DNA from: Homoserinimonas sp.
GTDB taxonomy: Bacteria > Actinomycetota > Actinomycetes > Actinomycetales > Microbacteriaceae
Direction: 5' to 3'
Assembly: GCA_025464755.1 (NCBI GenBank)
Contig: JAODMI010000115.1
Span: 1 to 51,659 of the forward strand
Length of the DNA stretch: 51,659 nt
Shown here in pieces: positions 8,621 to 41,082 of this stretch (position 1 is the first letter of the stretch; the number at the start of each line of letters is the position of its first letter). A program made the position numbers and the translations under genes. The notes below the pieces were generated by a model. It did not search any database. It was given only the letters and a program-made list of their open reading frames with translations, and was not told the origin of the DNA.

Positions 8621-8710
8621 GAAAATTCAGGAATGTGGCGCCGCGCTGTGGGCAAAAGGCCCCGTGCTCGCGTAATGCAGCTGAAAGAGGCACAACGTTC
8701 CTGAGTTTTC
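8621..8710. repeat. copy A of the inverted 13-mer element (arms 8621-8633 GAAAATTCAGGAA and 8698-8710 TTCCTGAGTTTTC; 64-nt interior)
   Basis: Read directly from the sequence. It is intergenic, between divergent rpsT and lepA. Arm similarity extends outward on both sides (CGAC.ATCC.YGAAAA.TCAGGAA). Confidence 0.8.
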
Positions 8711-8859
8711 GGGGATGCGGTCGTCACAGCGCCATATGGGGTGGGCGTTCGGCGGCCCGCGAAAAGCCCCAGTGAGCGAACAATGACCGATGGGACGGCA
8801 TACGCGCCAGCCGTGGGACAATTGGTGCATTCCATTTTCAGTACCAGTAAGAGGATCGC

Positions 8860-10713
8860 GTGAGCCCCAGAGCACTGAAAGCGCTTGAGCCGGCGTCGAC
8901 CGACCCCGCATTCATCCGTAATTTCTGCATCATCGCCCATATCGACCACGGCAAGTCGACTCTGGCAGACCGCATGCTGCAGATCACCGGTGTCGTCAGC
9001 GACCGCGATATGCGCGCGCAATACCTCGACCGCATGGACATTGAGCGTGAGCGCGGCATCACAATCAAAAGCCAGGCCGTTCGGATGCCGTGGGAACTCG
9101 ATGGCCAAACTTATGCGCTGAACATGATCGATACACCCGGGCACGTCGACTTCACCTACGAGGTGTCGCGAAGCCTGGCCGCTTGTGAGGGCGCCATCTT
9201 GTTGGTTGACGCGGCGCAAGGCATCGAAGCGCAGACGCTCGCCAATCTCTACCTTGCGCTCGACAACGACCTCACAATCATCCCGGTGCTCAACAAAATT
9301 GACTTACCCGCGGCCGACCCAGAGAAGTACACCAAAGAAATTGTCGGACTCATCGGCTGTAAGCCCGAAGATATCTTGCAAGTTTCCGGTAAGACAGGTG
9401 TGGGGGTGCCGGAGCTGCTCGACCGGGCCACCCAGTTAATTCCCGCTCCGGTCGGGGATCCGGATGCGGCGGCCCGCGCCATGATTTTTGACTCCGTGTA
9501 TGACGCCTACCGTGGCGTCATCACCTACGTTCGCATGATCGACGGGCACCTCAAGCCGCGCGAGAAAATCATGATGATGAGCACCAAGAGCGCACACGAA
9601 GTGCTCGAGATCGGCGTGAGCTCCCCGGAACCGACCCAGACCAAAGGCCTCGGCGTTGGCGAAGTGGGCTACCTCATCACCGGTGTGAAAGATGTGCGGC
9701 TCAGCAAAGTTGGTGACACCGTAACCAGTTTCATGAAGCCTGCAACGGTGGCTTTAGCCGGATACACGGAGCCGAAGCCCATGGTTTTTTCGGGCCTTTA
9801 CCCCATTGACGGCTCCGATTACCCGGTACTGCGCGAAGCCCTGGACAAGCTGAAGCTTTCGGATGCTGCTCTGGTTTACGAACCGGAAACTTCCGTTGCC
9901 CTCGGGTTTGGGTTTCGCTGCGGGTTCCTCGGCCTCCTGCACCTGGAGATTGTCACCGAACGGTTGGAGCGCGAATTCGGGCTCGACCTGATCGCGACGG
10001 CGCCATCCGTTATCTACGAGGTGAAGACCGACGATAAAAAAACCACCATCGTTACCAACCCGAGTGAGTTCCCCGGCGGCAAGATCGCCAGCGTGCGTGA
10101 ACCGATCGTGAAAGCTTCCATCCTGACGCCGAAGGACTATGTCGGTACCGTGATGGAGCTCTGCCAGGGCCGCAGGGGCACCATGCAGGGGATGGAGTAC
10201 GTCGGAGAGGATCGTGTTGAACTGCACTACACGATGCCGCTCGGGGAGATCGTCTTCGACTTCTTTGACCATCTGAAGAGCCGCACCGCGGGTTACGCCT
10301 CGCTCGACTATGAGCCCATCGGCGACCAGGAAGCGGACCTCGTGAAGGTCGACATTCTGTTGCAGGGTGAGGCGGTTGACGCGTTCAGTGCCATTGTCCA
10401 CCGCGACAAGGCCTACGCCTACGGTGTTCTGATGACCGAGCGGCTGAAGAAGCTGATCCCGCGCCAACAGTTCGAAGTTCCCATTCAGGCTGCCATTGGT
10501 GCCCGCATCATCGCCCGCGAAAGCATCAGTGCGATGCGCAAAGACGTTCTTGCTAAATGCTACGGCGGTGATATCACGCGTAAGCGCAAGCTCCTCGAGA
10601 AGCAGAAAGAGGGCAAGAAGCGGATGAAGATGGTCGGACGCGTCGAGGTGCCCCAGGAGGCTTTTATCGCTGCCCTAAGCGGGGACACCGAAACGAAGAA
10701 GGAAAAGAACTAA
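8860..10713 (+). CDS. lepA: translation elongation factor 4 (LepA)
   Basis: GTPase motifs [14 protein letters not shown] and NKID plus a LepA-specific C-terminal domain. GTG start lies 5 nt after AAGAGGA. Confidence 0.97.
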
Positions 10714-11369
10714 TGACCAGGCCGGCTCTATGGAAACTGCCGGTCAGTTATGCCGCCATCGGCGCGACGCAAGCGGCCGATCTAATGGCTTACCCGCCAC
10801 CCGGTTACCGGCCGTACGAGAAACGCGTCCGAATCGGTCACGGGCCGGTGAGGTGGGACTTCGCTTGGCATGCGACCCTGTCATGGGGCATCAAGTTGCG
10901 CAGCGGTTTTACCGTTGACGTCGAAAATTCGCCCTCGGAAGTCACCGACGCGACATACACTCCCGTCTCCTTTGACGACGCGGGTACACCCGTGAGTCCC
11001 GCGGCGACGGGTCCGAGTGCTGAGGCTGTGTACGGCCCTGACGGTATGCCGTTCATCGCCCCCGGTGATTCGGCTTGGCTCGTCGCCCATTTCGGGCCTT
11101 TCCACATCGGAGAGCCTGTTCGTGTTGTCTATGTAATCGACGAACCCAACCGCAAGGGTTACGCGTACGGGACACTGCCAGGGCATCCGTTCAGCGGTGA
11201 GGAAGCTTTCATCGTCGAGCGTTCCCCGGACGGTTCCGTCTGGCTAACCATCCGCTCTCTTTCGCGTCCGGCTACCGGTTTGTGGCGGGCAGCATATCCG
11301 ATCCTCCGCCTCGTTCAGGGTGCCTACCGTCGCCGATACTTCACGGCGCTGACCGGCCCAACCGACTAA
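10713..11369 (+). CDS. DUF1990 domain-containing protein
   Basis: 218 aa. The N-terminal pattern (YAAIGATQ...PPPGYRP...RIGHG...W) matches my memory of the DUF1990 family. ATGA overlap with the lepA stop. Confidence 0.65.
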   Translation: MTRPALWKLPVSYAAIGATQAADLMAYPPPGYRPYEKRVRIGHGPVRWDFAWHATLSWGIKLRSGFTVDVENSPSEVTDATYTPVSFDDAGTPVSPAATGPSAEAVYGPDGMPFIAPGDSAWLVAHFGPFHIGEPVRVVYVIDEPNRKGYAYGTLPGHPFSGEEAFIVERSPDGSVWLTIRSLSRPATGLWRAAYPILRLVQGAYRRRYFTALTGPTD

Positions 11370-11375
11370 GTCGTC

Positions 11376-12632
11376 ATGCCTTCCGCCTTGCCCCTCGCCG
11401 ATCCGGCGCCTCTCAATGGTCTACTTCCCTCTTCAGTGGCGGATGACGCGGCCACCCGCAACTTCGGTGTGTATGTGCACGTTCCCTTCTGCCGCGTCCG
11501 CTGCGGCTACTGCGACTTCAACACGTACACGTCTGAGGAGTTGCGTGGCAGTAAGCGCAGCGACTACGCCGGTCAGGCGATGGAGGAGATCGCACTTGCT
11601 GCGACGGTCCTCTCCGCGGCGGGACTACCGCAGCGCGCGGCTTCCACCATTTTCTTTGGTGGGGGAACACCGACGCTGCTTCCCTCTGGCGATCTGGCGG
11701 CGATGCTCGCTGCGATCATTGACACGTTTGGGTTGCAACCTGGTGCGGAAATCACGACGGAAGCCAATCCTGACTCCGTTGACCTTGAGTACCTGTCGAC
11801 GCTGAAGGACGCAGGGTTCACCCGTGTTTCATTCGGCATGCAGTCGGCTGTTCCCGAAGTGCTTGCCACTCTCGAGCGCACGCATGACCCCGCCCGTATA
11901 CCGCTCGTAGTGCAGTGGGCCAGGCAGGTGGGGCTCGATGTCAGCCTCGACCTCATTTATGGTACGCCGGGGGAGACGCTTGAAGACTGGAGACGGTCTT
12001 TGGAGCATGCGATTGCGCAGCAACCGGATCATCTTTCCGCATATGCGCTCATCGTTGAGGACGGCACAAAACTGGCGAGGCAGATTCGCCGTGGCGAGGT
12101 CGCCCAGCCCGACGACGACCTTCAGGCTGATATGTATGAGCTCGCCGATCAGCTGCTGGCACAAGCAGGATTCGAGTGGTACGAGGTCAGCAACTGGGCC
12201 CATCGAGGCGGGCACGGGGTTCCCGCTTTGGCGCACACGCTTGATCGTCGCTCGCGACACAACCTCGCCTATTGGCAGGGCCATGACTGGTGGGGGATTG
12301 GCCCGGGCGCCCACAGCCACATCGGAGGGGTCCGGTGGTGGAACGTTAAGCACCCGGCAGCGTATGCCGACCGTATCCGCGCCGGACATTCGCCCGCAGC
12401 CGGTCGGGAAACGCTGAATGGTGAAACCCGCAGGGTTGAGCGAGTGCTGTTGTTGACGCGCATCCGTGACGGTCTCACCATCGCTGAGCTCGCACCGTCC
12501 GGTCGGACGGCGGTTGCCGGCCTCATCGCGGACGAGCTGGTGGACGCCAGAGCCGCCCTGCGCGGGTCAATCGAGTTGACCCTGCGAGGACGGCTGCTGG
12601 CCGATGCTGTAGTTCGTCGGCTATTGGAGTAA
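11376..12632 (+). CDS. hemW: radical SAM family heme chaperone HemW (HemN-like, oxygen-independent coproporphyrinogen oxidase-like)
   Basis: Radical-SAM cluster motif CRVRCGYCDF, HemN-like C-terminal domain, and conserved lepA-hemW-hrcA synteny. Confidence 0.9.
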   Translation: MPSALPLADPAPLNGLLPSSVADDAATRNFGVYVHVPFCRVRCGYCDFNTYTSEELRGSKRSDYAGQAMEEIALAATVLSAAGLPQRAASTIFFGGGTPTLLPSGDLAAMLAAIIDTFGLQPGAEITTEANPDSVDLEYLSTLKDAGFTRVSFGMQSAVPEVLATLERTHDPARIPLVVQWARQVGLDVSLDLIYGTPGETLEDWRRSLEHAIAQQPDHLSAYALIVEDGTKLARQIRRGEVAQPDDDLQADMYELADQLLAQAGFEWYEVSNWAHRGGHGVPALAHTLDRRSRHNLAYWQGHDWWGIGPGAHSHIGGVRWWNVKHPAAYADRIRAGHSPAAGRETLNGETRRVERVLLLTRIRDGLTIAELAPSGRTAVAGLIADELVDARAALRGSIELTLRGRLLADAVVRRLLE

Positions 12633-13007
12633 CTACTTGATGAACTCGATCGTCATGGGGTACTTGTAGTACTGCCCATTGTTGGCCTTGACGGCCGCGA
12701 TGATGCTGAAAACGATGATCACAATGCCAACGGCGGCCAGGATCAGGAATCCCACAAGAACGATCGTGAGGAGAGCGCCCACCACGCTGACGATAACCAT
12801 GGTGATTTGGAAGTTGAGCGCGGTACGCGTGTGGTCGCGCACGAACGGTCCACGATCTTTCAATACGAGGTATCCGATGAGCGCCGGCAGGAAACCGAAA
12901 AGGATGCCACCGATGTGAACCAGTGTTGCCCAGAGCTTCTCATCGCTTGGGCGCATCGGCTGTACCGGCTGGTAGTCGGCGGGGGGCGGGGGCGCTGAGT
13001 ATGTCAT
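12633..13007 (-). CDS. DUF4870 domain-containing membrane protein
   Basis: 124 aa with a Pro-rich N-terminus followed by EKLWATLVHIGGILF...LKDRGPFVRDHTRTALNFQITMVI and 3 TM segments, the pattern typical of DUF4870. Confidence 0.7.
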   Translation of the reverse strand: MTYSAPPPPADYQPVQPMRPSDEKLWATLVHIGGILFGFLPALIGYLVLKDRGPFVRDHTRTALNFQITMVIVSVVGALLTIVLVGFLILAAVGIVIIVFSIIAAVKANNGQYYKYPMTIEFIK

Positions 13008-13047
13008 GGGCTCATTAAAGCAACACGGTGGGTTTTGTGTTTAACTG

Positions 13048-13437
13048 CTATTTAATCCAGCGGATGTTAACCGGGTAGCGGTAACTGCCGCCACCGCTGA
13101 CCTTGACGCCACCCATAATCGCAAAGATCAGGTTGACGATGAGGACTGCCCAGAGCAGCGCCGTCAGGATAAGACCCATGACCCAGCCGATGATGGGGAT
13201 GAAGCTGAGGATCGAGTTGACGATGCTCACCACCACAGCCAGCCCGGTGACGTTGATTGTCCAGTTCAGGGCTTCCTTGCTTTCCTGCCGCACGAGGTTG
13301 CCTCGGTCCTTGAATACAAGGTAGATGATGAGCGCAGGAACGACCAGGATGATGTTGCCGAAGTGGGCGAAAGACGCCCACTGCCTGTCGTCGGCTGCGG
13401 ACAGTGGGGCAGCGGATGATGGTCCTTGCGTGGTCAT
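13048..13437 (-). CDS. DUF4870 domain-containing membrane protein (tandem paralogue)
   Basis: Same architecture as its neighbour (DRQWASFAHFGNIILV...FKDRGNLVRQESKEALNWTINVTGL). I prefer the internal ATG at 13437-13435 (MTTQGPSS...) over the ORF-track start at 13554. Confidence 0.7.
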   Translation of the reverse strand: MTTQGPSSAAPLSAADDRQWASFAHFGNIILVVPALIIYLVFKDRGNLVRQESKEALNWTINVTGLAVVVSIVNSILSFIPIIGWVMGLILTALLWAVLIVNLIFAIMGGVKVSGGGSYRYPVNIRWIK

Positions 13438-13586
13438 GGGGTGCCTTCCAGTTGTGCGAGAAAGAAGCGGTCTTGCCTGCGGTGAGACGGCAAGCGCTGC
13501 TCCGAGTGGGTCACCTCGGTAGCCCCTAAAGGTAGCCCGGCACAAGCAGCGCATGCAACGCCTCGGACGTGACCTAGGCGGTACAA

Positions 13587-13613
13587 TTGGCAGTCATAGG
13601 TCGGGAGTGCCAA
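13587..13613 (+). promoter_or_regulatory. CIRCE-like HrcA operator (TTGGCAGTC-N9-GAGTGCCAA)
   Basis: Inverted repeat matching the CIRCE consensus TTAGCACTC-N9-GAGTGCTAA at 15 of 18 positions. The A>G / T>C change is symmetric. It ends 20 nt upstream of the hrcA start. Confidence 0.65.
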
Positions 13614-13633
13614 TAGCGGAAGGCTGGTATCGC

Positions 13634-14656: not shown

Positions 14657-14728
14657 CAATCACGCTAACAACCTCGGTGAAACGGGGCCACCGCGCGTGT
14701 GCGTGCACGATGAATCAAAGGATATGGA

Positions 14729-15838: not shown

Positions 15839-15839
15839 C

Positions 15840-16568: not shown

Positions 16569-16594
16569 CACGGTGCAGAGCTTAAGCTGGGTAC

Positions 16595-16951
16595 ATGTCT
16601 GTAACTGATGACCGCTCCGTGTTCACGAGAATCGTCGAGCGTGAAATTCCGGCTGACATCGTCTTCGAAAATGAGACCCTGATCGCGTTCCGCGACATTG
16701 CCCCGCAAGCGCCGACGCACATTCTCGTCGTGCCGAAGGTGAGCCACTACCGCAATGTCACAGAACTTGCGGGGGCAGATCCGGCCCTTCTCGCTGAACT
16801 CGTCACCACCGCGCAGGCTCTAGCAAACGCGCACTGCGGCGGAGAGTTTCGACTCGTCTTCAACACGGGATCAACGGTGGGCCAAACCGTCTTCCATGTA
16901 CACGCTCATGTCCTGGGGGGCACCATTCCGGAAGGTTCTCTTGCCCCGTAA
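16595..16951 (+). CDS. HIT-family (histidine triad) nucleotide-binding protein
   Basis: 118 aa with the histidine triad HVHAHVLGG near the C-terminus. Confidence 0.9.
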   Translation: MSVTDDRSVFTRIVEREIPADIVFENETLIAFRDIAPQAPTHILVVPKVSHYRNVTELAGADPALLAELVTTAQALANAHCGGEFRLVFNTGSTVGQTVFHVHAHVLGGTIPEGSLAP

Positions 16952-20862: not shown

Positions 20863-20939
20863 TGAAATTCAGGAACATCCAGCCGCAGATGGCTTACACG
20901 GCATCTCTCCGCCCAACGCGCGGCCGTATTCCTGAAATG
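20863..20939. repeat. copy B of the inverted 13-mer element (arms 20863-20875 and 20929-20939; 53-nt interior)
   Basis: Left arm is TGAAATTCAGGAA. The right arm TTCCTGAAATG is the most degenerate arm, with 2 mismatches in the 11-nt core. It is intergenic, downstream of era. Confidence 0.7.
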
Positions 20940-21023: not shown

Positions 21024-21103
21024 GGAAATTCAGGAATGTGTCGCGGCTGAGCTGTTGATGTTGGTGCGGGGGTGACCGGAAACGGCTCCGTTCCTGAATT
21101 TTC
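21024..21103. repeat. copy C of the inverted 13-mer element (arms 21024-21036 and 21091-21103; 54-nt interior)
   Basis: GGAAATTCAGGAA ... TTCCTGAATTTTC, both cores perfect. It starts 84 nt after copy B and lies about 390 nt upstream of leuA. Confidence 0.8.
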
Positions 21104-27515: not shown

Positions 27516-28901
27516 TTGGCCAACGCCTCATCCCTCGACCCTGTCATCAACCTGGCGAAGCGCCGCGGTTTCGTTTTCCAGGCCGGTGATATCTACGGCG
27601 GATCACGGTCGGCGTGGGATTACGGCCCCCTTGGTGTCGCCCTTAAGGAGAACATCAAGAAGCAGTGGTGGCAGTTCATGGTCAACGGCCGTGATGATGT
27701 TGTCGGGCTCGATTCATCCGTGATTTTGCCGAAGAAGGTGTGGGAAGCATCCGGACATGTCGAAGTGTTCAGCGACCCGCTTGTTGAATGCCTCAGTTGC
27801 CATAAGCGTTACCGCGCGGACCACCTTGAGGAAGAGTACGAAGAGAAGAAGGGTCGCGCGCCCGAAAATGGGATTGCCGATATCGCGTGCGCGAATTGCG
27901 GTACCCGTGGTCAGTGGACGGAGCCGCGTGCATTTTCGGGCCTGCTGAAGACTTACCTCGGCCCAGTCGATGACGAAGCCGGCATGCATTACCTGCGGCC
28001 CGAGACGGCGCAGGGCATTTTCGTAAACTTCGCCAACGTGTTGAACGTATCGCGGCAGAAGCCCCCGTTCGGCATCGGCCAGATCGGAAAAAGCTTCCGC
28101 AACGAGATCACGCCAGGTAACTTCATCTTCCGTACGCGTGAGTTCGAGCAGATGGAGATGGAGTTTTTTGTTGAGCCGGGTACCGACGAAGATTGGCATC
28201 AGTACTGGATTGACCAGCGGATGTCCTGGTACACCGGATTGGGGATCAAGCCAGAAAACCTTCGGCTCTTCGAGCACCCGGCCGAGAAACTATCGCACTA
28301 CTCGAAGCGCACCGTTGACATTGAGTACCGCTTCGGATTCCAGGGCAGCGAGTTCGGTGAGCTGGAAGGCATCGCGAACCGCACAGACTTCGATCTGAGG
28401 ACGCATTCGGTCGCATCCGGTGTCGACCTTTCCTTCTTCGACCAGGCCAAGAATGAGCGCTGGATTCCGTACGTGATCGAGCCCGCCGCCGGTCTCACCA
28501 GGTCGCTGATGGCGTTTCTCGTCGACGCGTACGCCGAAGATGAAGCGCCTAACACTAAAGGCGGTGTGGACAAACGCACAGTCCTGCGACTTGACCGCCG
28601 CCTGTCACCCGTGAAAGCCGCCGTGCTGCCGCTATCCCGCAACGAGCAGCTGTCGCCGGTTGCGCGCGAGCTGGCGGCGGACTTGCGTAAGTTCTGGAAC
28701 ATTGACTTTGACGACGCCGGAGCGATCGGTCGCCGTTACCGTCGCCAAGACGAGATCGGAACCCCGTTCTGCATCACCGTCGACTTCGACACGCTTGACG
28801 ATAAGGCTGTCACTGTTCGGGAGCGCGACACCATGGCCCAGGAGCGCATCTCGCTCGACCGGCTGCGCGGTTATCTGGCGGAGCAACTGCTGGGCGCTTA
28901 G
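27516..28901 (+). CDS. glyQS: glycine--tRNA ligase (homodimeric class II type)
   Basis: 461 aa. The N-terminus [26 protein letters not shown] and motif-2/3 regions are typical of alpha2 GlyRS. TTG start. Confidence 0.95.
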
Positions 28902-28980: not shown

Positions 28981-29059
28981 GAAAATTCAGGAACTTGCGC
29001 TGGTGCGGCTGCAGTGTGGGGCGTTAATCCATCGCGCCGCTGTGGTTTCCTGAATTTTC
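28981..29059. repeat. copy D of the inverted 13-mer element (arms 28981-28993 and 29047-29059; 53-nt interior)
   Basis: GAAAATTCAGGAA ... TTCCTGAATTTTC, both perfect. It starts 79 nt after the glyQS stop and ends 1 nt before the longest possible start of the DUF559 ORF. Confidence 0.85.
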
Positions 29060-30061
29060 GTGGTGCATCGGCACGCGACTCCTCCACAGGTATGTGCAGA
29101 TCTCGTTGCGCGCCAGTGCGGTGACTGCTTCGTTGCTGCTCTCTTGACCGTGCAGGCTACGTACGTGAACGCTGTGGAGAAGTGGGTTCGGCAACTCGGT
29201 GGTTACGCGCAGAAGCAAGAACTCGTTGCGCTGGGGGCGACGGATTATGCGCTCACGCGTGCGGTGAAGAACGGCAGCGTCGTTAGAGCGCGGCAGGGAT
29301 GGTATTCGGTCGCTGTTCCAACGGACCCTGCATTCCGCGCGGTGCGTACCGGCGGGCGCCTAACCGGGCTATCGGCTGTGCGCGCCTCGGGCGGTTGGGT
29401 GCTGGGGCGGAGTGGGCCGCTGCATGTGTCGGTTCCCCGCAACGGGGCACGCCTGAGATCACCGCTGAATCGTCAAATCGCGCTAACCCGGGGCAACAAG
29501 CATGGGGTACGGCTGCACTGGGACGAGCAGGCTGTCATAGGTCGTGGCACTAAAACTGTGGTGGAACTACGCGACGCCCTTTCACGCGTTGTTCGGGATG
29601 AGAACCTTGAAACCGCTGTCGCGGCGATCGATTGGGCCCTGCATAGCAACCGTCTTGACGCGCACACCTTTGAGAAGATGTTGTCCTCGATCCCGCCACG
29701 GCTTCGGTGGATCGGTGACTGGGTGGATGCCCGGTGTGAGAGTCTCCCGGAAAGCTTGGCTCGCACTCGGTTGCGTTTGGCCGGACACCGGGTACGGCTG
29801 CAGGTGAAACTTGGTGACGGTGCGCGAATCGATTTGGTTGTGGACGACATAGTTGGTTTGGAGACTGATGGGGAGGAGTTCCACAGAGATCGTTTTCTGG
29901 ATGACCGTCGCAAAGACATTCAGATTGTTTTCGCGAATTATCATCCGTTCCGAGCGCCAGCCGTGATGGTGTTCCGCGAGTGGCCGGTTGTGCTCGCCGG
30001 TATCGAGCAGGCGATTCTCGACCGCCGAAGGGCAACTGGCGTGCAGAACAGACAAGCGTAG
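29060..30061 (+). CDS. AbiEi_4-like winged-helix + DUF559 (Vsr-like PD-(D/E)xK endonuclease-fold) domain protein
   Basis: N-terminal part LGGYAQKQELVALGATDYALTRAVKNGSVVRARQGWYSV resembles an AbiEi-type wHTH. C-terminal part ...IDLVVDDIVGLETDGEEFH...DDRRKDIQIVFANYHPFRAP resembles the DUF559 D...E.DG..H...D..R core. The true start is probably an internal GTG (29150, 29165 or 29174). Confidence 0.75.
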   Translation: MVHRHATPPQVCADLVARQCGDCFVAALLTVQATYVNAVEKWVRQLGGYAQKQELVALGATDYALTRAVKNGSVVRARQGWYSVAVPTDPAFRAVRTGGRLTGLSAVRASGGWVLGRSGPLHVSVPRNGARLRSPLNRQIALTRGNKHGVRLHWDEQAVIGRGTKTVVELRDALSRVVRDENLETAVAAIDWALHSNRLDAHTFEKMLSSIPPRLRWIGDWVDARCESLPESLARTRLRLAGHRVRLQVKLGDGARIDLVVDDIVGLETDGEEFHRDRFLDDRRKDIQIVFANYHPFRAPAVMVFREWPVVLAGIEQAILDRRRATGVQNRQA

Positions 30062-30105: not shown

Positions 30106-30195
30106 GGAAATTCAGGAACTTGTGGGATACAACGGTTCGCATGGCCCCCGGTGGGACCAGATAGGCGGTGGCCCGCGCTGCGTTCCTGAATTTGC
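30106..30195. repeat. copy E of the inverted 13-mer element (arms 30106-30118 and 30183-30195; 64-nt interior)
   Basis: GGAAATTCAGGAA ... TTCCTGAATTTGC. It starts 44 nt after the DUF559 stop. It has the same orientation as copy D and the same left-end extension (AAATTCAGGAACTTG[C/T]G). Confidence 0.85.
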
Positions 30196-30297: not shown

Positions 30298-30945
30298 ATG
30301 AGCGAAAGAATCAAGGTCGACATTTGGTCTGATGTGCAGTGCCCGTGGTGTTATATCGGCAAGCGCAAGTTCGAGGCTGGGGCCGTCGAGTTCGGCGAGG
30401 ATGTGGACGTCGAATACCACTCGTACGAGTTGGCACCCGACACGCCGGTCGACTTCGTGGGCGGGCCAGTCGAATACCTGAGCGAGCGCAAGGGTCTTCC
30501 ACGCGACCAGGTCAAGCAGATGCTTGCAAATGTGACCGAGGTCGCCGAGAGTGTTGGTCTGCACTACGCCTACGATGACGTCAAGCAGACGAACACAATT
30601 AAAGCTCATGAGCTCATTCACTATGCCAAGAACAAGGGTCGACAACTTGAGATGAAGGAGCGTCTGCTCGCAGCCTATTTTGTCGAGGGTCGTCACATTG
30701 GCCGGATCGATGACCTGGCGGATCTCGCAGCCGAGCTTGCTTTCGACCGTGCTGATGTTGTTCGGTCGCTGACCGAGGCGGAATTTTTGCCCGATGTGAA
30801 AGCCGATCAGGCCCAGGCGAACGAATATGGCATTCGGGGTGTGCCGTTCTTCGTCATCGACGGCAAGTACGGAGTTTCGGGTGCGCAGGAGGCGGCGACT
30901 TTCGCACAGATTCTGCAACAGGTTCGGGATGAGAGAGCCGCGTGA
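30298..30945 (+). CDS. DsbA-family (FrnE-like) thiol-disulfide oxidoreductase
   Basis: Thioredoxin-fold CxxC active site in DIWSDVQCPWCYIGKRKFE and C-terminal GVPFFVIDGKYGVSGAQ, typical of the FrnE/DsbA-like family. Confidence 0.85.
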   Translation: MSERIKVDIWSDVQCPWCYIGKRKFEAGAVEFGEDVDVEYHSYELAPDTPVDFVGGPVEYLSERKGLPRDQVKQMLANVTEVAESVGLHYAYDDVKQTNTIKAHELIHYAKNKGRQLEMKERLLAAYFVEGRHIGRIDDLADLAAELAFDRADVVRSLTEAEFLPDVKADQAQANEYGIRGVPFFVIDGKYGVSGAQEAATFAQILQQVRDERAA

Positions 30946-31050
30946 CCGGCGGAACGGATCTGTCCCAATCTGCCTTGATGCCCTTGGGTGACATCGACGC
31001 TGTCGTGTGTGAGGGTGACGCCTGTCTCCTGCCTGAATAGGACACACGCA

Positions 31051-31091
31051 AAGAAGACGGGCACCAGCAGATTGCTGGTGCCCGTCTTCTT
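31051..31091. terminator. bidirectional intrinsic terminator between convergent dsbA-like and permease genes
   Basis: 18-bp perfect stem AAGAAGACGGGCACCAGC / GCTGGTGCCCGTCTTCTT (31051-31068 / 31074-31091) with loop AGATT. The stem itself has A-rich and T-rich ends. Confidence 0.75.
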
Positions 31092-31101
31092 CGCCTGAGA
31101 C

Positions 31102-32652
31102 CTACTTGTCGGTGCCGTCTCGGGCGAGCAACCGCTCTTCGACGGCTCCTCCGTATCCCTCGCTTTGCGGATCGCCATGAAGGCCGCCGGACACGGCGTA
31201 CTCTTCTTCCGGCGACATCACCAGCCGGTGGCGTCCCCATACGGCGAAGGCCACGAGCATGACCGCGTAAACGGCGACGATGGCGATGATTGCTGGCTGG
31301 AACGTGGGGTTGAGCAGGAAGCCGAAGAAGATCATCGCGGACAGCAGCGCCGCGATGATGGCGCCGGGCAAGCCCCATGGGCTCACGTAGGGTCGATTCA
31401 CGTTCGGAAATTTCTTGCGCAGTATGACGAATGAAATCATCTGCAGTAGGTAGGCAAGGACGGCGCCCCAGACGGCGATGTTGAGAACGATCGCTCCGGC
31501 AACAGCTCCGGCTCCTTCTTCATCCAGGCTGCTGAGAACGTCAACGACGATCAGAGCTATGAAGCCGATAATTGCGCCGGCAAGGAGGGCTACCCACGGT
31601 GTCTGACGCTTACCGGTCAGGGAAAGAAACTTCGGGTAGTACCCCGCCCGTGACAGGGAATACATGTTGCGTCCGTAAGCGAACATGATGCCTTGAAGCG
31701 AGGCGAACAGGCCAACCAGGGCGAAGAGGGCCAGAACCGCAGCCAGGCTGTCGCCGACCATAGCGCGGAATCCGTCGAGTAGTGGTTCCTCGGAAACCCC
31801 GGTCGCTTCCGCTCCGATGATGCCGGTGTTGAAGAAGAGTACGAGAAGGCCGGTGACGATCAGCGTTCCGCGCGCCCACAGCCCCGCCCGCGGAATGTCG
31901 CGCACAGGGTTGTGCGCTTCCTCTGCGGCGAGTGGTAGCTCCTCGATGCCGAGGAAGAACCACATGGCGAAGGGAAGTGCGAAGAGGATGGGCAGGATGC
32001 CGTGGGGAAGGAATGCGCTTTGACCCGGATCCGGCACGATGTTGAACAAGTTGTCCCAAGAGAACAACCCGGAGAAGGCCGCCATAGCGGAGAACACGAG
32101 AAGGATTCCGATCGAAATGATGGATACCACGATGGCGAATTTGAACGAAATGTTGGCTCCGGCGGTGTTTAGCAAGATGAAGATCGCATACAGAATCGCC
32201 CACCATACCCATCCCGGCATTGAGAATCCGAGTAGCTCAGACGTGATGCCGTCGGCGTAGGACGCTGAGAAGTAGACGATCACGGCGGTCGTCGCCACGT
32301 ATTCGATTGTTTCGGCAAGTCCGGTGATGAATCCTCCCCACGGCCCCATTGCCGCTCGGGAAAAGGAGTAGGCGCCGCCGGTGTGCGGCATGGCGGAGGC
32401 CATCTCTCCAATGGAGAAAATCATGCCGTAGTACATGACCACCAAGAGGGCGAATGCGATGAGCATCCCACCGAAGCCGGCGAATTCGATTCCGAAGTTC
32501 CAGCCGGAGAAGTCACCGGATATCACCGCTCCAACGGCTAGGCCCCACAGCCCCCAGACTCCGGCGGCTCGTTTGAGCTTGCGTTTTTCGAAGTAGCCGT
32601 CGGCGGCGGTCGTATATTTCACGCCGGAGACTCGCAGAGTATCTTTGGTCAT
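31102..32652 (-). CDS. APC-superfamily amino acid/ethanolamine permease (Eat-like)
   Basis: About 516 aa, roughly 12 TM. The N-terminal GYFEKRKLKRAAGVWGLWGLAVGAVISGDFSGWNFG... matches my memory of ethanolamine permeases. ATG 32652 (MTKDTL) is preferred over the ORF-track start at 32709. Confidence 0.8.
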   Translation of the reverse strand: MTKDTLRVSGVKYTTAADGYFEKRKLKRAAGVWGLWGLAVGAVISGDFSGWNFGIEFAGFGGMLIAFALLVVMYYGMIFSIGEMASAMPHTGGAYSFSRAAMGPWGGFITGLAETIEYVATTAVIVYFSASYADGITSELLGFSMPGWVWWAILYAIFILLNTAGANISFKFAIVVSIISIGILLVFSAMAAFSGLFSWDNLFNIVPDPGQSAFLPHGILPILFALPFAMWFFLGIEELPLAAEEAHNPVRDIPRAGLWARGTLIVTGLLVLFFNTGIIGAEATGVSEEPLLDGFRAMVGDSLAAVLALFALVGLFASLQGIMFAYGRNMYSLSRAGYYPKFLSLTGKRQTPWVALLAGAIIGFIALIVVDVLSSLDEEGAGAVAGAIVLNIAVWGAVLAYLLQMISFVILRKKFPNVNRPYVSPWGLPGAIIAALLSAMIFFGFLLNPTFQPAIIAIVAVYAVMLVAFAVWGRHRLVMSPEEEYAVSGGLHGDPQSEGYGGAVEERLLARDGTDK

Positions 32653-32729
32653 CCCGATTTCCTTTGCGCTCGTGGCGGGCACACCGACTACGGTCGAAGT
32701 ACGCAGCACTGTGAGTATTTCTTGGCTTG

Positions 32730-32760: not shown

Positions 32761-32863
32761 TTTGCCACAATTCCTTTGTCCTGCCCTCCACTCACTCTCA
32801 CCATTTCTTGTGGTGTAATGGTCTGAATATCGCCCATTGCAGGATCTCGATGAGGAGTAATGG

Positions 32864-35036: not shown

Positions 35037-36388
35037 GTTACACAGTCATCAACCCGGCAGACGAGACCATCGTTGAGACTGTCGACCATTTGAGTGTTGC
35101 CGAGACAGATGAAGCCATCCACCGTGCCTCCATGGCGCAACGCAACTGGGCAAACGTTTCACCGGCTGACAAAGCCGCCGCATTGCGCCGCTTTGCCGCG
35201 GCTGTCGACGGCGACATTGAGAACCTGGCGCAAATCGAAGTGCGAAACTCCGGGCATCCCATCTCGCAGGCACGGTGGGAGGCCGGACATGTGCGTGATG
35301 TTCTCGAGTATTACGGTGCAGCTCCGGAGCGGATGTTCGGTAAGCAGATTCCCGTTTCCGGGGGCATTGATGTGACGTTCAACGAGCCTCTCGGGGTAGT
35401 TGGCATCATCACCCCGTGGAATTTCCCGATGACGATTGCAGCGTGGGGCTTTGCGCCAGCGCTGGCGGCGGGGAACGCTGTCGTACTGAAACCGGCCGAA
35501 TGGACTCCACTTAGCAGCATGCGGCTTGCGGAGCTAGCTCGTGCGTCGGGGCTGCCTGACGGCCTTTTCCAGGTGCTCCCTGGTAGAGGATCCGTTGTTG
35601 GCGAGAGGTTCGTCACGAACCCGACCGTAAGGAAAGTGGTTTTCACCGGCTCCACAGCGGTTGGTAAGCGAATCATGGCGGGCTGCGCCGACCAGGTTAA
35701 ACGTGTCACTCTCGAACTCGGCGGCAAAAGCGCCAATATCGTTTTTGCGGACGCGGACCTCGAAAAAGCAGCAGCCACCGCTCCGTACGGAGTGTTCGAG
35801 AATGCTGGACAGGATTGTTGTGCACGCAGCCGCATCCTTGTCGAAAGGAGCGCGTACGAGCGCTTCATGGAACTGCTGGAACCGGCTGTCAAGGGTGTGC
35901 GGGTTGGTGACCCGGCGCTGGAGTCGACCGAGATGGGCCCGCTGGTCTCCCGGCAACACCACGACTCGGTGAGCGGGTACCTGCCAGATGGTGTCCCCAT
36001 TGCGTTTCAGGGGAGTGCCCCGACTGGCCCAGGGTTCTGGTTTGCACCCACTGTTTTGACTCCCGAGCGTGGCGACCGAACCGTTCGCGAAGAGATTTTC
36101 GGGCCAGTGGTGACCGTGCTTCCTTTTGACGGCGAAGCTGACGCGCTCACTCTGGCCAACGACACGGAGTACGGGCTTTCCGGTTCTATCTGGACGCGGG
36201 ATGTCGGCCGGGCCATCCGCGTCGCGCGTGGTGTCGAGGCCGGTAACCTTTCGGTCAATTCGCACTCATCCGTTCGCTACAGCACACCTTTTGGCGGATT
36301 TAAGCAGTCCGGGTTGGGGCGGGAATTGGGTCCGGATGCCCCGCTCCACTTCACTGAAACCAAAAACGTTTTTATTGCCGTTGACTAA
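35033..36388 (+). CDS. NAD(P)-dependent aldehyde dehydrogenase
   Basis: ALDH motifs ELGGKSA and the catalytic Cys region GQDCCARSRILV. ATGA overlap with the upstream gene. Confidence 0.9.
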   Translation: MSYTVINPADETIVETVDHLSVAETDEAIHRASMAQRNWANVSPADKAAALRRFAAAVDGDIENLAQIEVRNSGHPISQARWEAGHVRDVLEYYGAAPERMFGKQIPVSGGIDVTFNEPLGVVGIITPWNFPMTIAAWGFAPALAAGNAVVLKPAEWTPLSSMRLAELARASGLPDGLFQVLPGRGSVVGERFVTNPTVRKVVFTGSTAVGKRIMAGCADQVKRVTLELGGKSANIVFADADLEKAAATAPYGVFENAGQDCCARSRILVERSAYERFMELLEPAVKGVRVGDPALESTEMGPLVSRQHHDSVSGYLPDGVPIAFQGSAPTGPGFWFAPTVLTPERGDRTVREEIFGPVVTVLPFDGEADALTLANDTEYGLSGSIWTRDVGRAIRVARGVEAGNLSVNSHSSVRYSTPFGGFKQSGLGRELGPDAPLHFTETKNVFIAVD

Positions 36389-36396
36389 GGAGAGTC

Positions 36397-37188
36397 ATGA
36401 CCAACATTCAGAAACTTGATCTGACCCAGCGGCTGGCTGGGCGTGTCGCGGTTGTTACGGGTGGTGCGAGCGGAATCGGGCTGGCAACGGCGCAGCGTTT
36501 CGCAGCGGAAGGCGCGGTCGTCGTCATCGGCGACATGGATGAGGTTGCGGGCGCTCGAGCCGCTGAGCAAGTCGGTGGAATGTTCATAAAGGTGAATGTT
36601 GCCGACGAAGGGGAGGTGGACAACCTTTTCGACACCGCGCAGACGACCTATGGTTCGGTGGATATCGCCTTCAACAACGCGGGGATCTCTCCGGCGGATG
36701 ACGACTCGATCGAAACGACGGAGCTTCCTGCCTGGCAGAAGGTGCAAGACGTCAACCTGAAGTCTGTGTACTTGTGCTCGCGGGCCGCCCTTCGACACAT
36801 GGTGAAACAGGGAAAAGGGTCCATCATCAATACGGCGTCGTTCGTGGCTGTGCTCGGATCTGCAACGTCGCAGATTTCCTATACGGCATCCAAGGGCGGT
36901 GTCTTGGCGATGAGCAGGGAATTGGGTGTGCAGTTCGCTCGTCAGGGGATCCGTGTCAACGCACTGTGCCCCGGACCGGTCAACACGCCACTGCTGCAGG
37001 AACTTTTCGCGAAAGACCCTGAGCGGGCGCAGCGCCGACTGGTTCATATTCCGGTAGGTCGTTTCGCGGAGCCGGAGGAGTTGGCCGCTGCCGTTGCTTT
37101 TCTTGCCAGCGATGACTCGTCGTTCATCACCGGGTCAACTTTTTTGGTTGATGGCGGTATCAGCTCGGCGTACGTCACGCCGGTGTAG
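36397..37188 (+). CDS. SDR-family oxidoreductase (3-oxoacyl-ACP reductase-like)
   Basis: TGGASGIG cofactor motif, NNAG, and catalytic YTASKGG (YxxxK). Confidence 0.9.
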   Translation: MTNIQKLDLTQRLAGRVAVVTGGASGIGLATAQRFAAEGAVVVIGDMDEVAGARAAEQVGGMFIKVNVADEGEVDNLFDTAQTTYGSVDIAFNNAGISPADDDSIETTELPAWQKVQDVNLKSVYLCSRAALRHMVKQGKGSIINTASFVAVLGSATSQISYTASKGGVLAMSRELGVQFARQGIRVNALCPGPVNTPLLQELFAKDPERAQRRLVHIPVGRFAEPEELAAAVAFLASDDSSFITGSTFLVDGGISSAYVTPV

Positions 37189-37201
37189 CAGCGCACATTC
37201 T

Positions 37202-37987
37202 ATGATCGAGTTGATAACAATGACCGAGGAGCCTGACGCCGCGTCAACGCCACCGCGCGTCGGTGTCGAATTTCTGCTTCTGCGTCAGGGCAGAGTGGTC
37301 AACGCCTTTGAAGAGACCGTGCAGCGGCTGCTGCAGTCTGTGCGGCTCGGCTTGGTCGGCCCGGGTGAGCGACTACCGGCCGAGCGTGAACTGGCCGGAA
37401 TGCTGGGGGTCAGCCGCGATACTCTTCGAGACGCAATCGGTGCCCTAACGGAAGCCGGTTATCTCGTATCTCGACGCGGCCGATACGGGGGAACTTTCGT
37501 CGTTGACCAGTTGCCGAAGGACAACCCGGCCATCGATGGCGCGGGAGGGGTCGCCCCACGCCGAACCATTCCCCGTGACGAAATCGAAGACATACTACGT
37601 TTGCGCAATATTCTCGAGGTCGGAGCGGCTCGGCAGGCTGCGATCAGTGAACTTTCCGGGCAGGACCGAGAGCGGCTTTGGCAAGCGCTTCTGGACACAA
37701 ACGCGGCCACAGCAGACAGCTATCGGCGACAAGATTCCCGACTACATCTTCTGGTGGCTGAACTCGCCGGTACGCGCAGCTTGGTGCCCCTCATAGCGGA
37801 CCTGCGCATGCGGGTGAACGACCTTTTGGATGGGATTCCTTTGCTGGCGCCGAACATCGTGCACTCAGATAAACAGCATGAGGCCATCGTGATGGCCATT
37901 CTTCAGGGAAGCCCTGATGAAGCTGCGCGCGCAATGGAGGAACATATCGCCGGATCAGCGTCGCTCTTGCGCGGATTTCTGGCATAG
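37202..37987 (+). CDS. GntR-family (FadR/FCD subfamily) transcriptional regulator
   Basis: wHTH region LPAERELAGMLGVSRDTLRDAIGALTEAGYLVSRRGRYGGTFV plus an all-helical FCD-like C-terminal domain. ATG 37202 is the first start after the SDR stop (alternative 37220). Confidence 0.85.
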   Translation: MIELITMTEEPDAASTPPRVGVEFLLLRQGRVVNAFEETVQRLLQSVRLGLVGPGERLPAERELAGMLGVSRDTLRDAIGALTEAGYLVSRRGRYGGTFVVDQLPKDNPAIDGAGGVAPRRTIPRDEIEDILRLRNILEVGAARQAAISELSGQDRERLWQALLDTNAATADSYRRQDSRLHLLVAELAGTRSLVPLIADLRMRVNDLLDGIPLLAPNIVHSDKQHEAIVMAILQGSPDEAARAMEEHIAGSASLLRGFLA

Positions 37988-37991
37988 TGCT

Positions 37992-38495
37992 TCAGTGGTC
38001 GACGAGCGGTTCTGTAATGTCGGCAACTGTGGCTCCCAGTGTGGCAAGGAGCGCGTCGGCATCAACAAAAGCGCTGTACCCGGGGTCTCCTGCGCCGAGT
38101 GAGACGCGCTTGCCGGTCATGTGCGAGTCGGCATAGACCGGCCAAGGTGTCGTACTGCCAAGCGGCGTGATCGCACCACGGGGATATCCGGTCGCCGCCA
38201 GCGCGACCGACGCGTCGGGCAACGACAACTTGTTCACGCCGACGATGTCGCGAAGCTTCGGCCAAGAAATTTGCCGATCGCCGGGGATAAGGGCAAAGAG
38301 GAAGGTGCCGTCCTTGTGTTTCACGACGAGAGTTTTTACGATGTCGGCCGGGGCGATTCCGAGCAGTTCGGCAGCGTGCTTCAGGTTGGTCGCATCCATC
38401 CGCTCGGCGAAATCAATGTGCAGGCCGCGGGCCAAAGCATCCGCCGCAACCCGCACTCTCCCCTCTAAACCAGGCATACCGGTTGGCTTCGTCAT
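37992..38495 (-). CDS. YbaK/EbsC-type aminoacyl-tRNA editing (deacylase) domain protein
   Basis: 167 aa. TLVVKHKDGTFLFALIPGDRQISWPKLRDIVG...ATGYPRGAITPLG is typical of the YbaK/ProX trans-editing family. Confidence 0.78.
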   Translation of the reverse strand: MTKPTGMPGLEGRVRVAADALARGLHIDFAERMDATNLKHAAELLGIAPADIVKTLVVKHKDGTFLFALIPGDRQISWPKLRDIVGVNKLSLPDASVALAATGYPRGAITPLGSTTPWPVYADSHMTGKRVSLGAGDPGYSAFVDADALLATLGATVADITEPLVDH

Positions 38496-38526
38496 GATGT
38501 GCCGCGCTTTCTGGGAGAATCAAGGG

Positions 38527-39705
38527 GTGACTGTTACCGACGCTACCGCTGTCGAGCACGATTTGCTCCGCGCTCCGCGGTTGAATATCGGGCCGATCGA
38601 GCTCGACGTTCCGGTCGTTCTTGCGCCCATGGCGGGTATCACCAACACGGCCTTCCGCCGCCTATGCCGCGAGTTCGGCGCCGGGCTGTATGTCAGCGAA
38701 ATGATTACCAGCCGCGCACTTGTTGAACGCACACCAGCATCGATGCGTCTTATCCAGCATCACGAATCTGAGACGCCTCGAAGCATCCAGCTGTATGGAG
38801 TGGATCCGAAGACAGTCTCTGAAGCCGTCACCATGCTTGTTGCCGAGGATCGCGCCGACCATATCGACCTGAACTTCGGATGCCCGGTACCGAAGGTCAC
38901 CCGCAAGGGCGGGGGAGCGGCCCTCCCCTGGAAGTTGCAGCACTTTCGCAACATTGTCGAGGGGGCCGTGAAGGCTGCAGGTGATATCCCTCTCACCATC
39001 AAAATGCGCAAAGGCATCGACTCCGACCATCTCACGTACCTCGAAGCGGGGCGCGCGGCGGAAGGTGCAGGCGTGGCGAGTATCGCCCTGCATGCACGCA
39101 CCGCAGCCGAGTTCTACAGCGGCACAGCGGACTGGTCAGCAATCGCCGCGTTGAAGAACGCGATCTCAAGTGTGCCGGTTCTTGGGAACGGCGATATTTG
39201 GTCCGGTGCGGATGCCATCAGGATGGTAAACGAGACAGGATGTGACGGGGTCGTTGTCGGGCGCGGATGCCTGGGGCGTCCGTGGCTCTTCGGTGACCTC
39301 GTTGCCGCTTTCCGCGGACAGACCGAGATCGCCCAGCCGTCGCTGGGTACTGTTGCGGCAACATTGCGACGGCACACCGAGCTCTTAGTCGAGTTTTTCG
39401 GTAGCGAAGAGCGCGCCTGCCGCGACATCCGCAAACACATCACCTGGTACTTCAAGGGTTACCCGGTTGGAGGCGACGTGCGGGCCAGTCTCGGCATGGT
39501 TGAAAGCCTCCAGCAGATGGATGACCTACTGGGAACGTTGGATTGGGGAATGCCTTATCCGGGTGAGGACGCGGAAGGTCCACGTGGTCGGGCCGGCACG
39601 CCTAAGCGACCAGCGCTTCCCGACCGCTGGCTTGACAGTCAAACCATGGACGAGGCGGCAAGCTGTGAACTTGCGGGAGCAGAGCTGAGCCACAGTGGCG
39701 GCTGA
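38527..39705 (+). CDS. dus: tRNA-dihydrouridine synthase
   Basis: LAPMAGITNTAFR and DLNFGCPVPKV motifs with a TIM-barrel FMN fold. GTG 38527 follows GGGAGA. An alternative ATG at 38494 would overlap the divergent ybaK-like start codon. Confidence 0.9.
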   Translation: MTVTDATAVEHDLLRAPRLNIGPIELDVPVVLAPMAGITNTAFRRLCREFGAGLYVSEMITSRALVERTPASMRLIQHHESETPRSIQLYGVDPKTVSEAVTMLVAEDRADHIDLNFGCPVPKVTRKGGGAALPWKLQHFRNIVEGAVKAAGDIPLTIKMRKGIDSDHLTYLEAGRAAEGAGVASIALHARTAAEFYSGTADWSAIAALKNAISSVPVLGNGDIWSGADAIRMVNETGCDGVVVGRGCLGRPWLFGDLVAAFRGQTEIAQPSLGTVAATLRRHTELLVEFFGSEERACRDIRKHITWYFKGYPVGGDVRASLGMVESLQQMDDLLGTLDWGMPYPGEDAEGPRGRAGTPKRPALPDRWLDSQTMDEAASCELAGAELSHSGG

Positions 39706-40951
39706 TGGTGATGCGGCCTACGGCGAACATGACACAGCCCGCTTCCTTCCCGAAGAGCACTACAGTCGCCGCAGCGATTTTGCGCGCGACCGTGCCCGGC
39801 TGTTGCACTCAAGCGCTCTGCGCAGGCTTGCGGCGAAAACGCAGGTGCTCAGCCCAACCCAGGGACTCGACTTTGCTCGCAACCGTTTGACCCACTCGCT
39901 TGAGGTAGCCCAGGTCGGCCGTGAACTGGCCACCAGCCTGGGGCTCGACCCCGACATTGTGGACACCGCCTGTCTCGCCCACGACCTCGGGCATCCGCCG
40001 TTTGGACACAACGGTGAGAAGGCGCTGAACGGGTGGGCCAGCGGTATAGGTGGGTTTGAAGGTAATGCGCAAACTTTGCGCCTGTTGACCCGCATTGAGC
40101 CTAAAGTTTTCGGTGATGAGGGGACGTCGTACGGACTGAACTTAACGCGCGCCAGCCTGGATGCCAGCTGCAAGTACCCCTGGCCAGACACCAGGTCGGT
40201 GGAGGACCCCAGCGGGCGTGCGAAATTTGGCTTCTACCGCGACGACATCGCAGCATTTGAATGGTTGCGCCAAGGGGCGCCCGATGGTCGGCTGTGCGTG
40301 GAGGCTCAAGTCATGGACCTCTCCGACGATATTGCTTACTCGGTACATGATTTCGAGGACGCAATTTTCAGTGGTTACGTGGATGTGGCTGCGCTGGGGG
40401 CGCGGGTCAATCATGAGGAACTTGTGGATTCGATGTTCGCCTGGATCGGCGGTGAGCACGACCATGCTGAGTTGGTTGCCGCATTCGATCGTCTTGACAG
40501 TCTCGACGTGTGGATTGACCGGTGGGATGGTAGCCGTGCGTCACAGGGGCAGCTGAAGAACTTGACAAGCCAACTGATCGGACGCTTTGCCGGCGCCGCG
40601 GTGCAAGCGACTCGCGAGGCGAACGGGGATGGAATTCTCAGTCGTTTTCGGGCAGATATCGTCGTGCCGAGGGATATTCAGGCGGAGATCGCTGTGCTTA
40701 AAGGGATCGTGGCAGCATTTGTCATGTCGAAGAATACGCGACAGCCCATATACACCCAGCAGCGTGAGATTTTGGTGGAACTTGCGGACGCGCTTGTCGC
40801 TCACGGGCCGGACGAGCTGGACCCCGGATTCGCGGCTGACTGGCACGCCGCCTCTAACGACGCTGAGCGTAAGCGGGCAGTCGTCGATCAGGTGGCTAGC
40901 CTTACCGACCAGTCGGCGATGAGCTGGCATGAGAGGCTCGCGCGCTTTTAA
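39695..40951 (+). CDS. dgt: deoxyguanosinetriphosphate triphosphohydrolase-like protein (HD domain)
   Basis: HD-domain motifs RLTHSLEVAQVG and AHDLGHPPFGH. GTG start overlaps the end of dus. It lies upstream of dnaG, as in many actinobacteria. Confidence 0.9.
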   Translation: MAADGDAAYGEHDTARFLPEEHYSRRSDFARDRARLLHSSALRRLAAKTQVLSPTQGLDFARNRLTHSLEVAQVGRELATSLGLDPDIVDTACLAHDLGHPPFGHNGEKALNGWASGIGGFEGNAQTLRLLTRIEPKVFGDEGTSYGLNLTRASLDASCKYPWPDTRSVEDPSGRAKFGFYRDDIAAFEWLRQGAPDGRLCVEAQVMDLSDDIAYSVHDFEDAIFSGYVDVAALGARVNHEELVDSMFAWIGGEHDHAELVAAFDRLDSLDVWIDRWDGSRASQGQLKNLTSQLIGRFAGAAVQATREANGDGILSRFRADIVVPRDIQAEIAVLKGIVAAFVMSKNTRQPIYTQQREILVELADALVAHGPDELDPGFAADWHAASNDAERKRAVVDQVASLTDQSAMSWHERLARF

Positions 40952-41003
40952 GAGCACCTGCTACAGCGTGAGGCCTGTCGTCATCCCGCGCCCGAGCATT
41001 TCG

Positions 41004-41082
41004 TAAAATTCAGGTATATGCAGTCCCGGTGCTGCACAGTCGCCGCTTATGTCGCGGAGCTGGGCGCACTTCCTGAATTTCC
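41004..41082. repeat. copy F of the inverted 13-mer element (arms 41004-41016 and 41070-41082; 53-nt interior)
   Basis: TAAAATTCAGGTA (1 core mismatch) ... TTCCTGAATTTCC. It lies between convergent dgt and the aldehyde dehydrogenase gene. Confidence 0.75.

Follow-up and report, generated by a model that had tools for sequence, protein, structure and literature searches.

A 51.6-kb stretch of DNA from Homoserinimonas sp. (contig JAODMI010000115.1, 60% G+C; "the window" below means the whole of this stretch) carries six copies of a short element built of two conserved arms in inverted orientation around an interior of variable sequence. A preliminary description of this DNA had listed six such pairs, A to F, and all were found in place. 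Two of them bracket a gene, here called X (29165..30061, plus strand), which encodes a 298-residue protein with an AbiEi-like winged-helix DNA-binding module and a C-terminal nuclease domain of the Vsr/DUF559/MTES_1575 type. Element D (28981..29059; arm cores 28983-28993 and 29047-29057; spacing 53) lies in the gap that separates X from a class II aminoacyl-tRNA synthetase gene (27516-28901), and ends about 107 nt ahead of the X start. Element E (30106..30195; cores 30108-30118 and 30183-30193; spacing 64) begins about 46 nt past the X stop, in the gap before dsbA (30298-30945). That D and E flank one gene had been noticed correctly, but not that this gene encodes an associated nuclease. The other four copies lie among housekeeping genes. 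Element A (8621..8710; cores 8623-8633 and 8698-8708; spacing 64) sits in the gap between rpsT (8040-8300, minus strand) and lepA (8860-10713), element B (20863..20939; cores 20865-20875 and 20929-20939; spacing 53) downstream of era, and element C (21024..21103; cores 21026-21036 and 21091-21101; spacing 54) upstream of leuA. Element F (41004..41082; cores 41006-41016 and 41070-41080; spacing 53) separates two convergent genes, encoding a dGTPase-like HD-domain phosphohydrolase (39695-40951) and an aldehyde dehydrogenase (41146-42609, minus strand).

The arms are what these elements have in common. When the whole window was scanned for the core AAATTCAGGAA with at most one mismatch there were 11 matches, all of them within elements A to F. 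The mean in shuffled sequence was 0.49, and none of 100 shuffles reached 11. Nine of the 12 cores are perfect, two have a single mismatch (8698-8708 and 41006-41016) and the right arm of B has two, which corrects an earlier count of eight perfect cores and four with one or two mismatches. In a six-way alignment the invariant columns are confined to the arms, and the impression that the interior is poorly conserved was sound. An expectation-maximisation search for an orientation or interior motif did little better than on shuffled controls, and orthologous copies accounted for much of the difference. Among related copies the arms are 16 bases long and form an inverted pair with a near-invariant consensus, yTTCGGAAATTCAGGAA, which contains no internal hairpin and no GTAG or CGTC tag. 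It is clear that the arm sequence itself is constrained, and not merely the pairing of the arms. The proposal that each arm consists of three half sites phased by 5 bp fits the variant found in the window (TTCCTGAATTTTC) but not the family consensus (TTCCTGAATTTCCGAA).

Arms without a partner are rare (5 of 191), and most of them are apparent chance matches or extra tandem arms. Examples of the latter are three left arms at a 23-nt period (L020:1222-1354), two right arms 23 nt apart (L042:6918-7016) and left arms doubled 19 nt apart (L118:9043-9135 and 9785-9877). The outward flanks, from -7 to -16 outside the arms, are rich in C on the left side and in G on the right side in the window and in the other loci (about 50-58% against a background of 34%), and G runs often follow directly after TTCCGAA. 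This bias is compositional only, as pairing stops about 5 nt out.

A second shared property is the distance between the arms. The distances first given for A to F, measured from 11-mer to 11-mer (64, 53, 54, 53, 64 and 53 nt), were all reproduced, and so was the idea that they represent discrete size classes about one helical turn apart. In 94 copies from related Microbacteriaceae genomes the spacing is 53 (22 copies), 54 (13), 55 (9), 63 (1), 64 (17), 65 (17), 66 (12), 75 (1), 76 (1) or 77 (1). This amounts to three classes, 53-55 (44 copies), 63-66 (47) and 75-77 (3), and not one of the 94 copies has a spacing of 56-62 or 67-74. Spacing is quantised, with about 11 bp from one class to the next. 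The same is seen when one site is followed from genus to genus. For the element between the synthetase gene and X most genera have a spacing of 64-65, some have 53-54 and one has 75, while the one between X and dsbA has 63-66 or 76, and no orthologous copy falls between the classes. Orthologous elements switch class without intermediates, so length is confined to the classes while the sequence drifts. One copy in Glaciihabitans (L116:15353-15460), downstream of the HD-domain phosphohydrolase gene and thus in the position of element F, has partly degenerate arms and a spacing of 86, which is one more step of about 11 nt past the 75-77 class.

How widely is the element distributed? An exact-pattern scan using one genome per species matched at least 115 stretches and, among the matches listed, most are from Microbacteriaceae (Salinibacterium, Rhodoglobus, Cryobacterium, Homoserinimonas, Marisediminicola, Parafrigoribacterium and Conyzicola). 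The copies lie between tandem (34), convergent (16) and divergent genes (10). The order synthetase-[element]-X-[element]-dsbA is found in at least 12 genomes. In the closest relative, whose synthetase is 93% identical at the protein level, the arms of element D are retained and the interior is unalignable. Around leuA the presence and position of copies vary among genera. The six elements are copies of a dispersed DNA repeat, the inverted conserved arms of which are whole helical turns apart. Neither the viral-contig nor the plasmid scan points to a phage or plasmid origin. The viral contigs gave three matches, with spacings of 69, 42 and 50 nt that are outside the Microbacteriaceae classes, and the plasmids gave only two weak Tsukamurella matches to X. 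No published description of these repeats was found in the literature that could be searched on Microbacteriaceae MITEs (miniature inverted-repeat transposable elements), on the arm sequences, on DUF559 with repeats or palindromes, or on REPIN/RAYT in Actinobacteria.

One repeat with the same core was set apart from the family. Several Kiritimatiellia bins (L003, L008, L023, L044, L058, L091, L095, L101 and others) contain many copies each of a repeat of about 90-110 nt with the arms TTTGAAATTCAGGAAAC, which shares a core of 13-14 nt. However, its spacing is mostly 69-70, its AT-rich interior is conserved and there is no X-like gene within the 8-kb loci examined. This is a separate, MITE-like family, and the common core is probably due to chance.

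The protein encoded by X combines two recognisable parts. Pfam gives weak matches of X itself to AbiEi_4 and MTES_1575, with DUF559 below the cut-off, whereas relatives of X pass the cut-offs for DUF559 and MTES_1575, and PADLOC AbiEi models span residues 12-179 of one relative. NCBIfam has no family for X. The structure model has a mean predicted local distance difference test (pLDDT) score of 83.7, and a Foldseek search with it found AbiEi (6y8q, E 4e-5) and Rv2827c. For the C-terminal domain the matches were 3hrl, a DUF559 protein, and the Vsr-like domain of I-Bth0305I, with target-normalised TM-scores of 0.73-0.74; the entries listed for the nuclease fold are 3hrl and 3r3p. Residues D223, E233 and D235 are invariant in 13 diverse members that are 27-54% identical to X. 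The domain thus has both a Vsr-like PD-(D/E)xK-type fold and the conserved acidic residues, and homologues of X are named "very-short-patch-repair endonuclease" in the sources. The family is large: clustering at 50% identity leaves 1522 representatives. When trained on the neighbouring genes, a codon model does not call X and calls a weak antisense open reading frame instead, so the codon usage of X looks atypical. Database calls of X homologues (P0125, P0139 and the consensus of alignment A3) often run into the downstream element, which gives them spurious ...GNSG...PEF... tails at the C-terminus.

The link between X and the arms comes from other lineages. Relatives of X with only 30-35% identity are flanked by pairs of the same build but with other arms, namely GTCGAACTTTCAGGC in L117, TGTGCAGGAC in L118, AAATGAAGGAA in L119, TTTGCAGGA in L120, AACTCAGGAA in L121 and CCGTTTCAAGGA in L127. 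In Glaciihabitans (L116) both arms of the element upstream of X read AAACTCAGGA. In all, at least 20 distinct arm types have been found around X, many with a spacing of 54-55. Pairs with the same arms stand on both sides of X in 43 of 80 metagenome loci. Among the fully flanked loci such pairs surround X in 24 of 37 cases, whereas control positions placed in the same loci give 1 of 65. The arrangement is also regular in its distances, the upstream element ending 75-125 nt ahead of the X start and the downstream element starting 30-50 nt past the stop in the lineages examined. Even in one and the same synthetase-dsbA locus there are several X genes that are about 36% identical and have different arms, between neighbours that are 65-85% identical. 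The arms change along with X, and X, to judge from these identities, evolves fast.

The preliminary description placed all six elements between genes. This is true of the copies in the window, but elsewhere four genes contain in-frame copies, about 10 of 91 in all: xylB, encoding xylulokinase (L017, L050 and L054), and the genes for PurH (L041, L066 and L104), HrpA (L073 and L094) and SMC (L079 and L089). They are translated as GNSG...PEFP or KIQE...PEFP/FLNFQ. PurH with the element is about 28 residues longer than Mycobacterium tuberculosis PurH and 23-25 residues longer than empty Microbacteriaceae relatives. A single comparison of a filled and an empty purH showed no clear target-site duplication, with an uncertain alignment of the linker. 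In the filled allele (L104:5472-7121) the right arm aligns with the sequence CGGCTTTCGTCTCGGTCGGA of the empty allele (L210:1001-2581), and about 11 of 20 positions match.

The xylB copy, with a spacing of 54 in L017 and 66 in L050 and L054, is of another kind. Alignment with solved structures and 120 homologues shows that its interior is native sequence (ILPRVLNAGESAGTV vs VLPRVLGPTESAGDT), that the arms overlie GHDA and LPGVPAG and that only about seven residues have been added. Native LPGVPA stands where the right arm encodes LPEFPK, and in some lineages the arms have decayed to RGSG...PELP. The purH and xylB comparisons hint that arms land on, or convert, native sequence that was already arm-like.

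A further clue is a purH copy in L129, which is at the same site as the others, with the same spacing of 55 and an interior sharing GGATGCCGC. Here both sides have changed. The arms are CAAATGAAGGCA and TGCCTTCATTTG, and CAAATGAAGGCA replaces GGAAATTCAGGAA. Several other PurH proteins have QMKA...PSF at this site, consistent with the same alternative arms. Taken at face value, the purH case looks like insertion of a whole unit, while xylB and the switch of arms look like replacement of short patches.

We propose that the elements are helically phased paired binding sites of the nuclease X which have proliferated in this clade, in the manner of REPIN/RAYT but with a different enzyme. This is probably correct, and we hold it with moderate confidence. 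Two suggestions in the preliminary description, a REPIN-like doublet and a paired protein site sensitive to helical phase, are both supported and turn out to be one and the same thing. Spacing is quantised at about 11 bp, and the gene flanked in many lineages encodes a DNA-binding nuclease with which the arms change. In the proposed mechanism one X protomer would bind each 16-bp arm through its AbiEi-like winged-helix module, and two protomers would touch across bent double-stranded DNA. This would place the arms 5, 6 or 7 helical turns apart, that is, at spacings of 54, 65 and 76 nt. The DNA between the arms would not be read and so could drift freely. Bridging by two protomers would in this way explain why spacing is phased, why arms come in pairs and why the interior is free to vary. 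The gene for X would itself lie between two sites, one upstream and operator-like and one downstream. In this Microbacteriaceae clade the site would have multiplied to about one per 8-9 kb, between genes or in frame in tolerant gene linkers. The arms would be kept intact, and updated when the specificity of X changes, by a mechanism requiring the Vsr-type nuclease domain, such as nick-initiated copying or short-patch conversion.

What if X does not move units at all, but writes them? In this hypothetical scenario X is a Vsr-type nickase guided by the AbiEi-like module, and it starts very short repair patches that write or correct the 16-bp arms in place and in helical phase. The spread of the arms would then be a sequence drive acting on existing DNA, not transposition of a unit. 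Such motif writing would explain why the xylB arms overlie native coding sequence with almost no added length, how both purH arms could switch to a new specificity, and why perfect arms surround saturated interiors. We offer it tentatively and consider it rather unlikely.

Several observations do not sit well with paired binding sites of X that have proliferated. About a third of X-family loci have no detectable shared flanking pair, and L125 shows none. In most of the distant lineages only the two flanking copies are seen within about 6.8 kb, so the dense spread seen here (six in 52 kb) may be a burst specific to this clade. Within the window alone the flanking of X would not be significant, since 5 of about 45 intergenic regions carry an element. 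A bin with many copies, L102, has synthetase-[element]-dsbA without X, although the bin could be incomplete or have X at another locus. The xylB arms, placed over native coding sequence with so few extra residues, are not explained by simple insertion of a whole unit. Finally, the change of both arms together is an outcome that a hairpin would also give. As to L102, its lone element (L102:5723-5799, Microbacteriaceae bin CAN_BIN33) is what recombination between two flanking elements would leave.

Perhaps the arms do bind X, or a similar protein, but in the service of the host, for chromosome organisation or a large regulon, with selection acting on each site and the nuclease having no part in spread or upkeep. 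An AbiEi-like fold suits an autoregulator that binds inverted repeats, the upstream element lies 75-125 nt ahead of the X start in every lineage examined, orthologous loci retain their arms and helical phasing suits looping. Nevertheless, a host function is doubtful. Copies between convergent genes and in frame in purH, xylB, hrpA and smc are hard to reconcile with it, as are the invariance of the catalytic D/E/D residues, the variable presence of copies around leuA and the existence of decayed ones. Moreover, the arms at an orthologous copy switch with the lineage, which would be hard to achieve site by site at many loci. A related thought is that a different host protein uses the arms as its sites, and that X is merely one of the genes it regulates or insulates. 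Binding of the arms by X is after all a deduction, and the L102 bin, rich in copies, has no X at the usual locus. However, the arms change with the X lineage over at least 20 types while the flanking architecture is kept, and the DNA-binding module of X comes from a family known to bind inverted repeats, which makes this improbable.

An ordinary MITE moved by an unrelated transposase, with the arms as its terminal inverted repeats and the position of X a coincidence, is very improbable. It would account for the inverted arms as such, for the net insertion in purH relative to empty relatives and for the related interiors of several Cryobacterium-like copies. It would not account for old orthologous copies that combine perfect arms with change-saturated interiors, unlike decaying transposon relics, nor for quantised spacing, the recurrence of matching arms around X in many lineages or the native interior in xylB. 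No transposase was found among the flanking genes examined, and the one purH comparison, with its uncertain linker alignment, showed no clear target-site duplication. The preliminary description had also left room for a structured RNA, and one might add a hairpin acting in termination or processing, in each case with the two arms as the closing stem. Joint change of the arms between lineages would fit, and whole elements do fold better than shuffles on both strands (z from -1.3 to -4.9). The reason is the arms, which alone make up the closing stem. Interiors folded by themselves behave like shuffled sequence (mean z -0.4), and their structures are inconsistent from copy to copy. Complementarity of mirrored positions exceeds the mismatched-partner control only close to the core, to about 7 nt on its inner and about 5 nt on its outer side, and this position-wise test found no covariation of an interior hairpin. 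No T run follows the stem. In Rfam searches at gathering and permissive thresholds only a tRNA-Asn passed gathering, and no element was matched at E values up to 5. Arm sequence fixed beyond the needs of pairing, and copies in both orientations relative to genes, in every context and even within coding frames, are further arguments against an RNA. So is the step of about 11 nt, which matches the helical repeat of double-stranded DNA and has no rationale for an RNA loop. An RNA element is scarcely credible and that option was dropped.

If X does bind these sites, DUF559/AbiEi-fusion proteins, a large actinobacterial family, gain a concrete DNA partner and a testable activity. Next to REP/RAYT, the elements would then be a second, independent case of repeats partnered by a dedicated enzyme gene, which suggests that such partnerships arise repeatedly from different enzymes. 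If the arms are indeed written in place, this would be a new way of spreading short motifs through genomes. The strict quantisation at about 11 bp in natural sites offers a ready system for the study of protein bridging of very short DNA. There is also a lesson for annotation, as the arms yield recurrent GNSG...PEFP or KIQE...PEFP peptides in real proteins and lengthen calls of the X gene at the 3' end.

Three other inverted repeats in the window deserve mention. A strong hairpin at 31038-31104 (32-nt arms, 88% complementary, 3-nt loop) lies downstream of dsbA, where an amino-acid/ethanolamine permease-like gene (31102-32709, minus strand) has its 3' end; it resembles a terminator and is unrelated to the element arms. 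Directly past element F, between the convergent genes, there is a perfect 15-bp stem (41102-41140), and the gap between holA and rpsT contains a 20-nt stem with A/T runs beside it (7988-8030). Both look like two-way terminators.

How does this system compare with known ones? Integron attC sites also have inverted conserved end motifs and an interior of variable length and sequence, and in both cases a gene is bracketed by two sites. However, their core sites are RYYYAAC and GTTRRRY and they work with the IntI integrase. The core motifs here differ, copies are scattered among housekeeping genes and not in an array, and no integrase was found among the flanking genes examined. Like Rickettsia palindromic elements and in-gene MITEs, the present elements are palindromic repeats tolerated as in-frame insertions in protein-coding genes. 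The sequences are unrelated, though, and here conservation is limited to the arms, spacing falls into discrete steps and there is an evident partner gene. As in MITEs the ends are terminal inverted repeats. MITE copies can be aligned from end to end and share their ends with a parent insertion sequence that carries a transposase, whereas here the interiors are in general not alignable and the flanking genes examined included no transposase.

The C-terminal domain of X has the fold and conserved acidic residues of Vsr endonuclease and of the Vsr-like (EDxHD) homing endonuclease I-Bth0305I. The latter is a multidomain homodimer with a footprint of about 60 bp, a precedent for a dimer that spans a long symmetric site. 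X differs in being free-standing, not within an intron or intein, and in having two separated arms in place of one central pseudopalindrome. Complete arm pairs stand on each side of X, where an EDxHD homing endonuclease gene that splits its own target site would have single half sites. Vsr enzymes nick at T:G mismatches and are paired with a cytosine methyltransferase; no methyltransferase was found among the flanking genes examined here. The N-terminal part, about 190 residues, matches the AbiEi fold and profile, which connects X with the AbiE type IV toxin-antitoxin systems (Streptococcus agalactiae AbiEi and M. tuberculosis Rv2827c). AbiEi bends DNA and binds cooperatively to inverted repeats located upstream of the gene that encodes it, and an inverted-repeat element 75-125 nt upstream of X fits such an autoregulator site. 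In contrast to AbiE, no AbiEii nucleotidyltransferase toxin gene is adjacent to X, the neighbours being dsbA downstream and the aminoacyl-tRNA synthetase gene upstream. A nuclease domain is instead fused within X, and besides the upstream site one is found on the downstream side of X, with more at many loci elsewhere in the genomes of this clade.

In organisation there is a parallel with REPIN/RAYT. RAYT is an IS200/IS605-type HUH tyrosine transposase, and the REP unit of Gammaproteobacteria is an imperfect palindrome with a GTAG or CGTC head. The enzyme here is an AbiEi-like winged helix joined to a Vsr/DUF559 nuclease and not an HUH transposase, the arms are not hairpins and lack GTAG or CGTC, the interior varies freely in sequence while its length is quantised, and some copies are in frame in genes. 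Nevertheless, both systems consist of short dispersed repeats of two inverted units together with a partner enzyme gene that is itself flanked by repeats. Here that gene is seen as a single copy in a conserved place. In both systems each enzyme lineage has a repeat sequence of its own, and inheritance is mostly vertical with long persistence.

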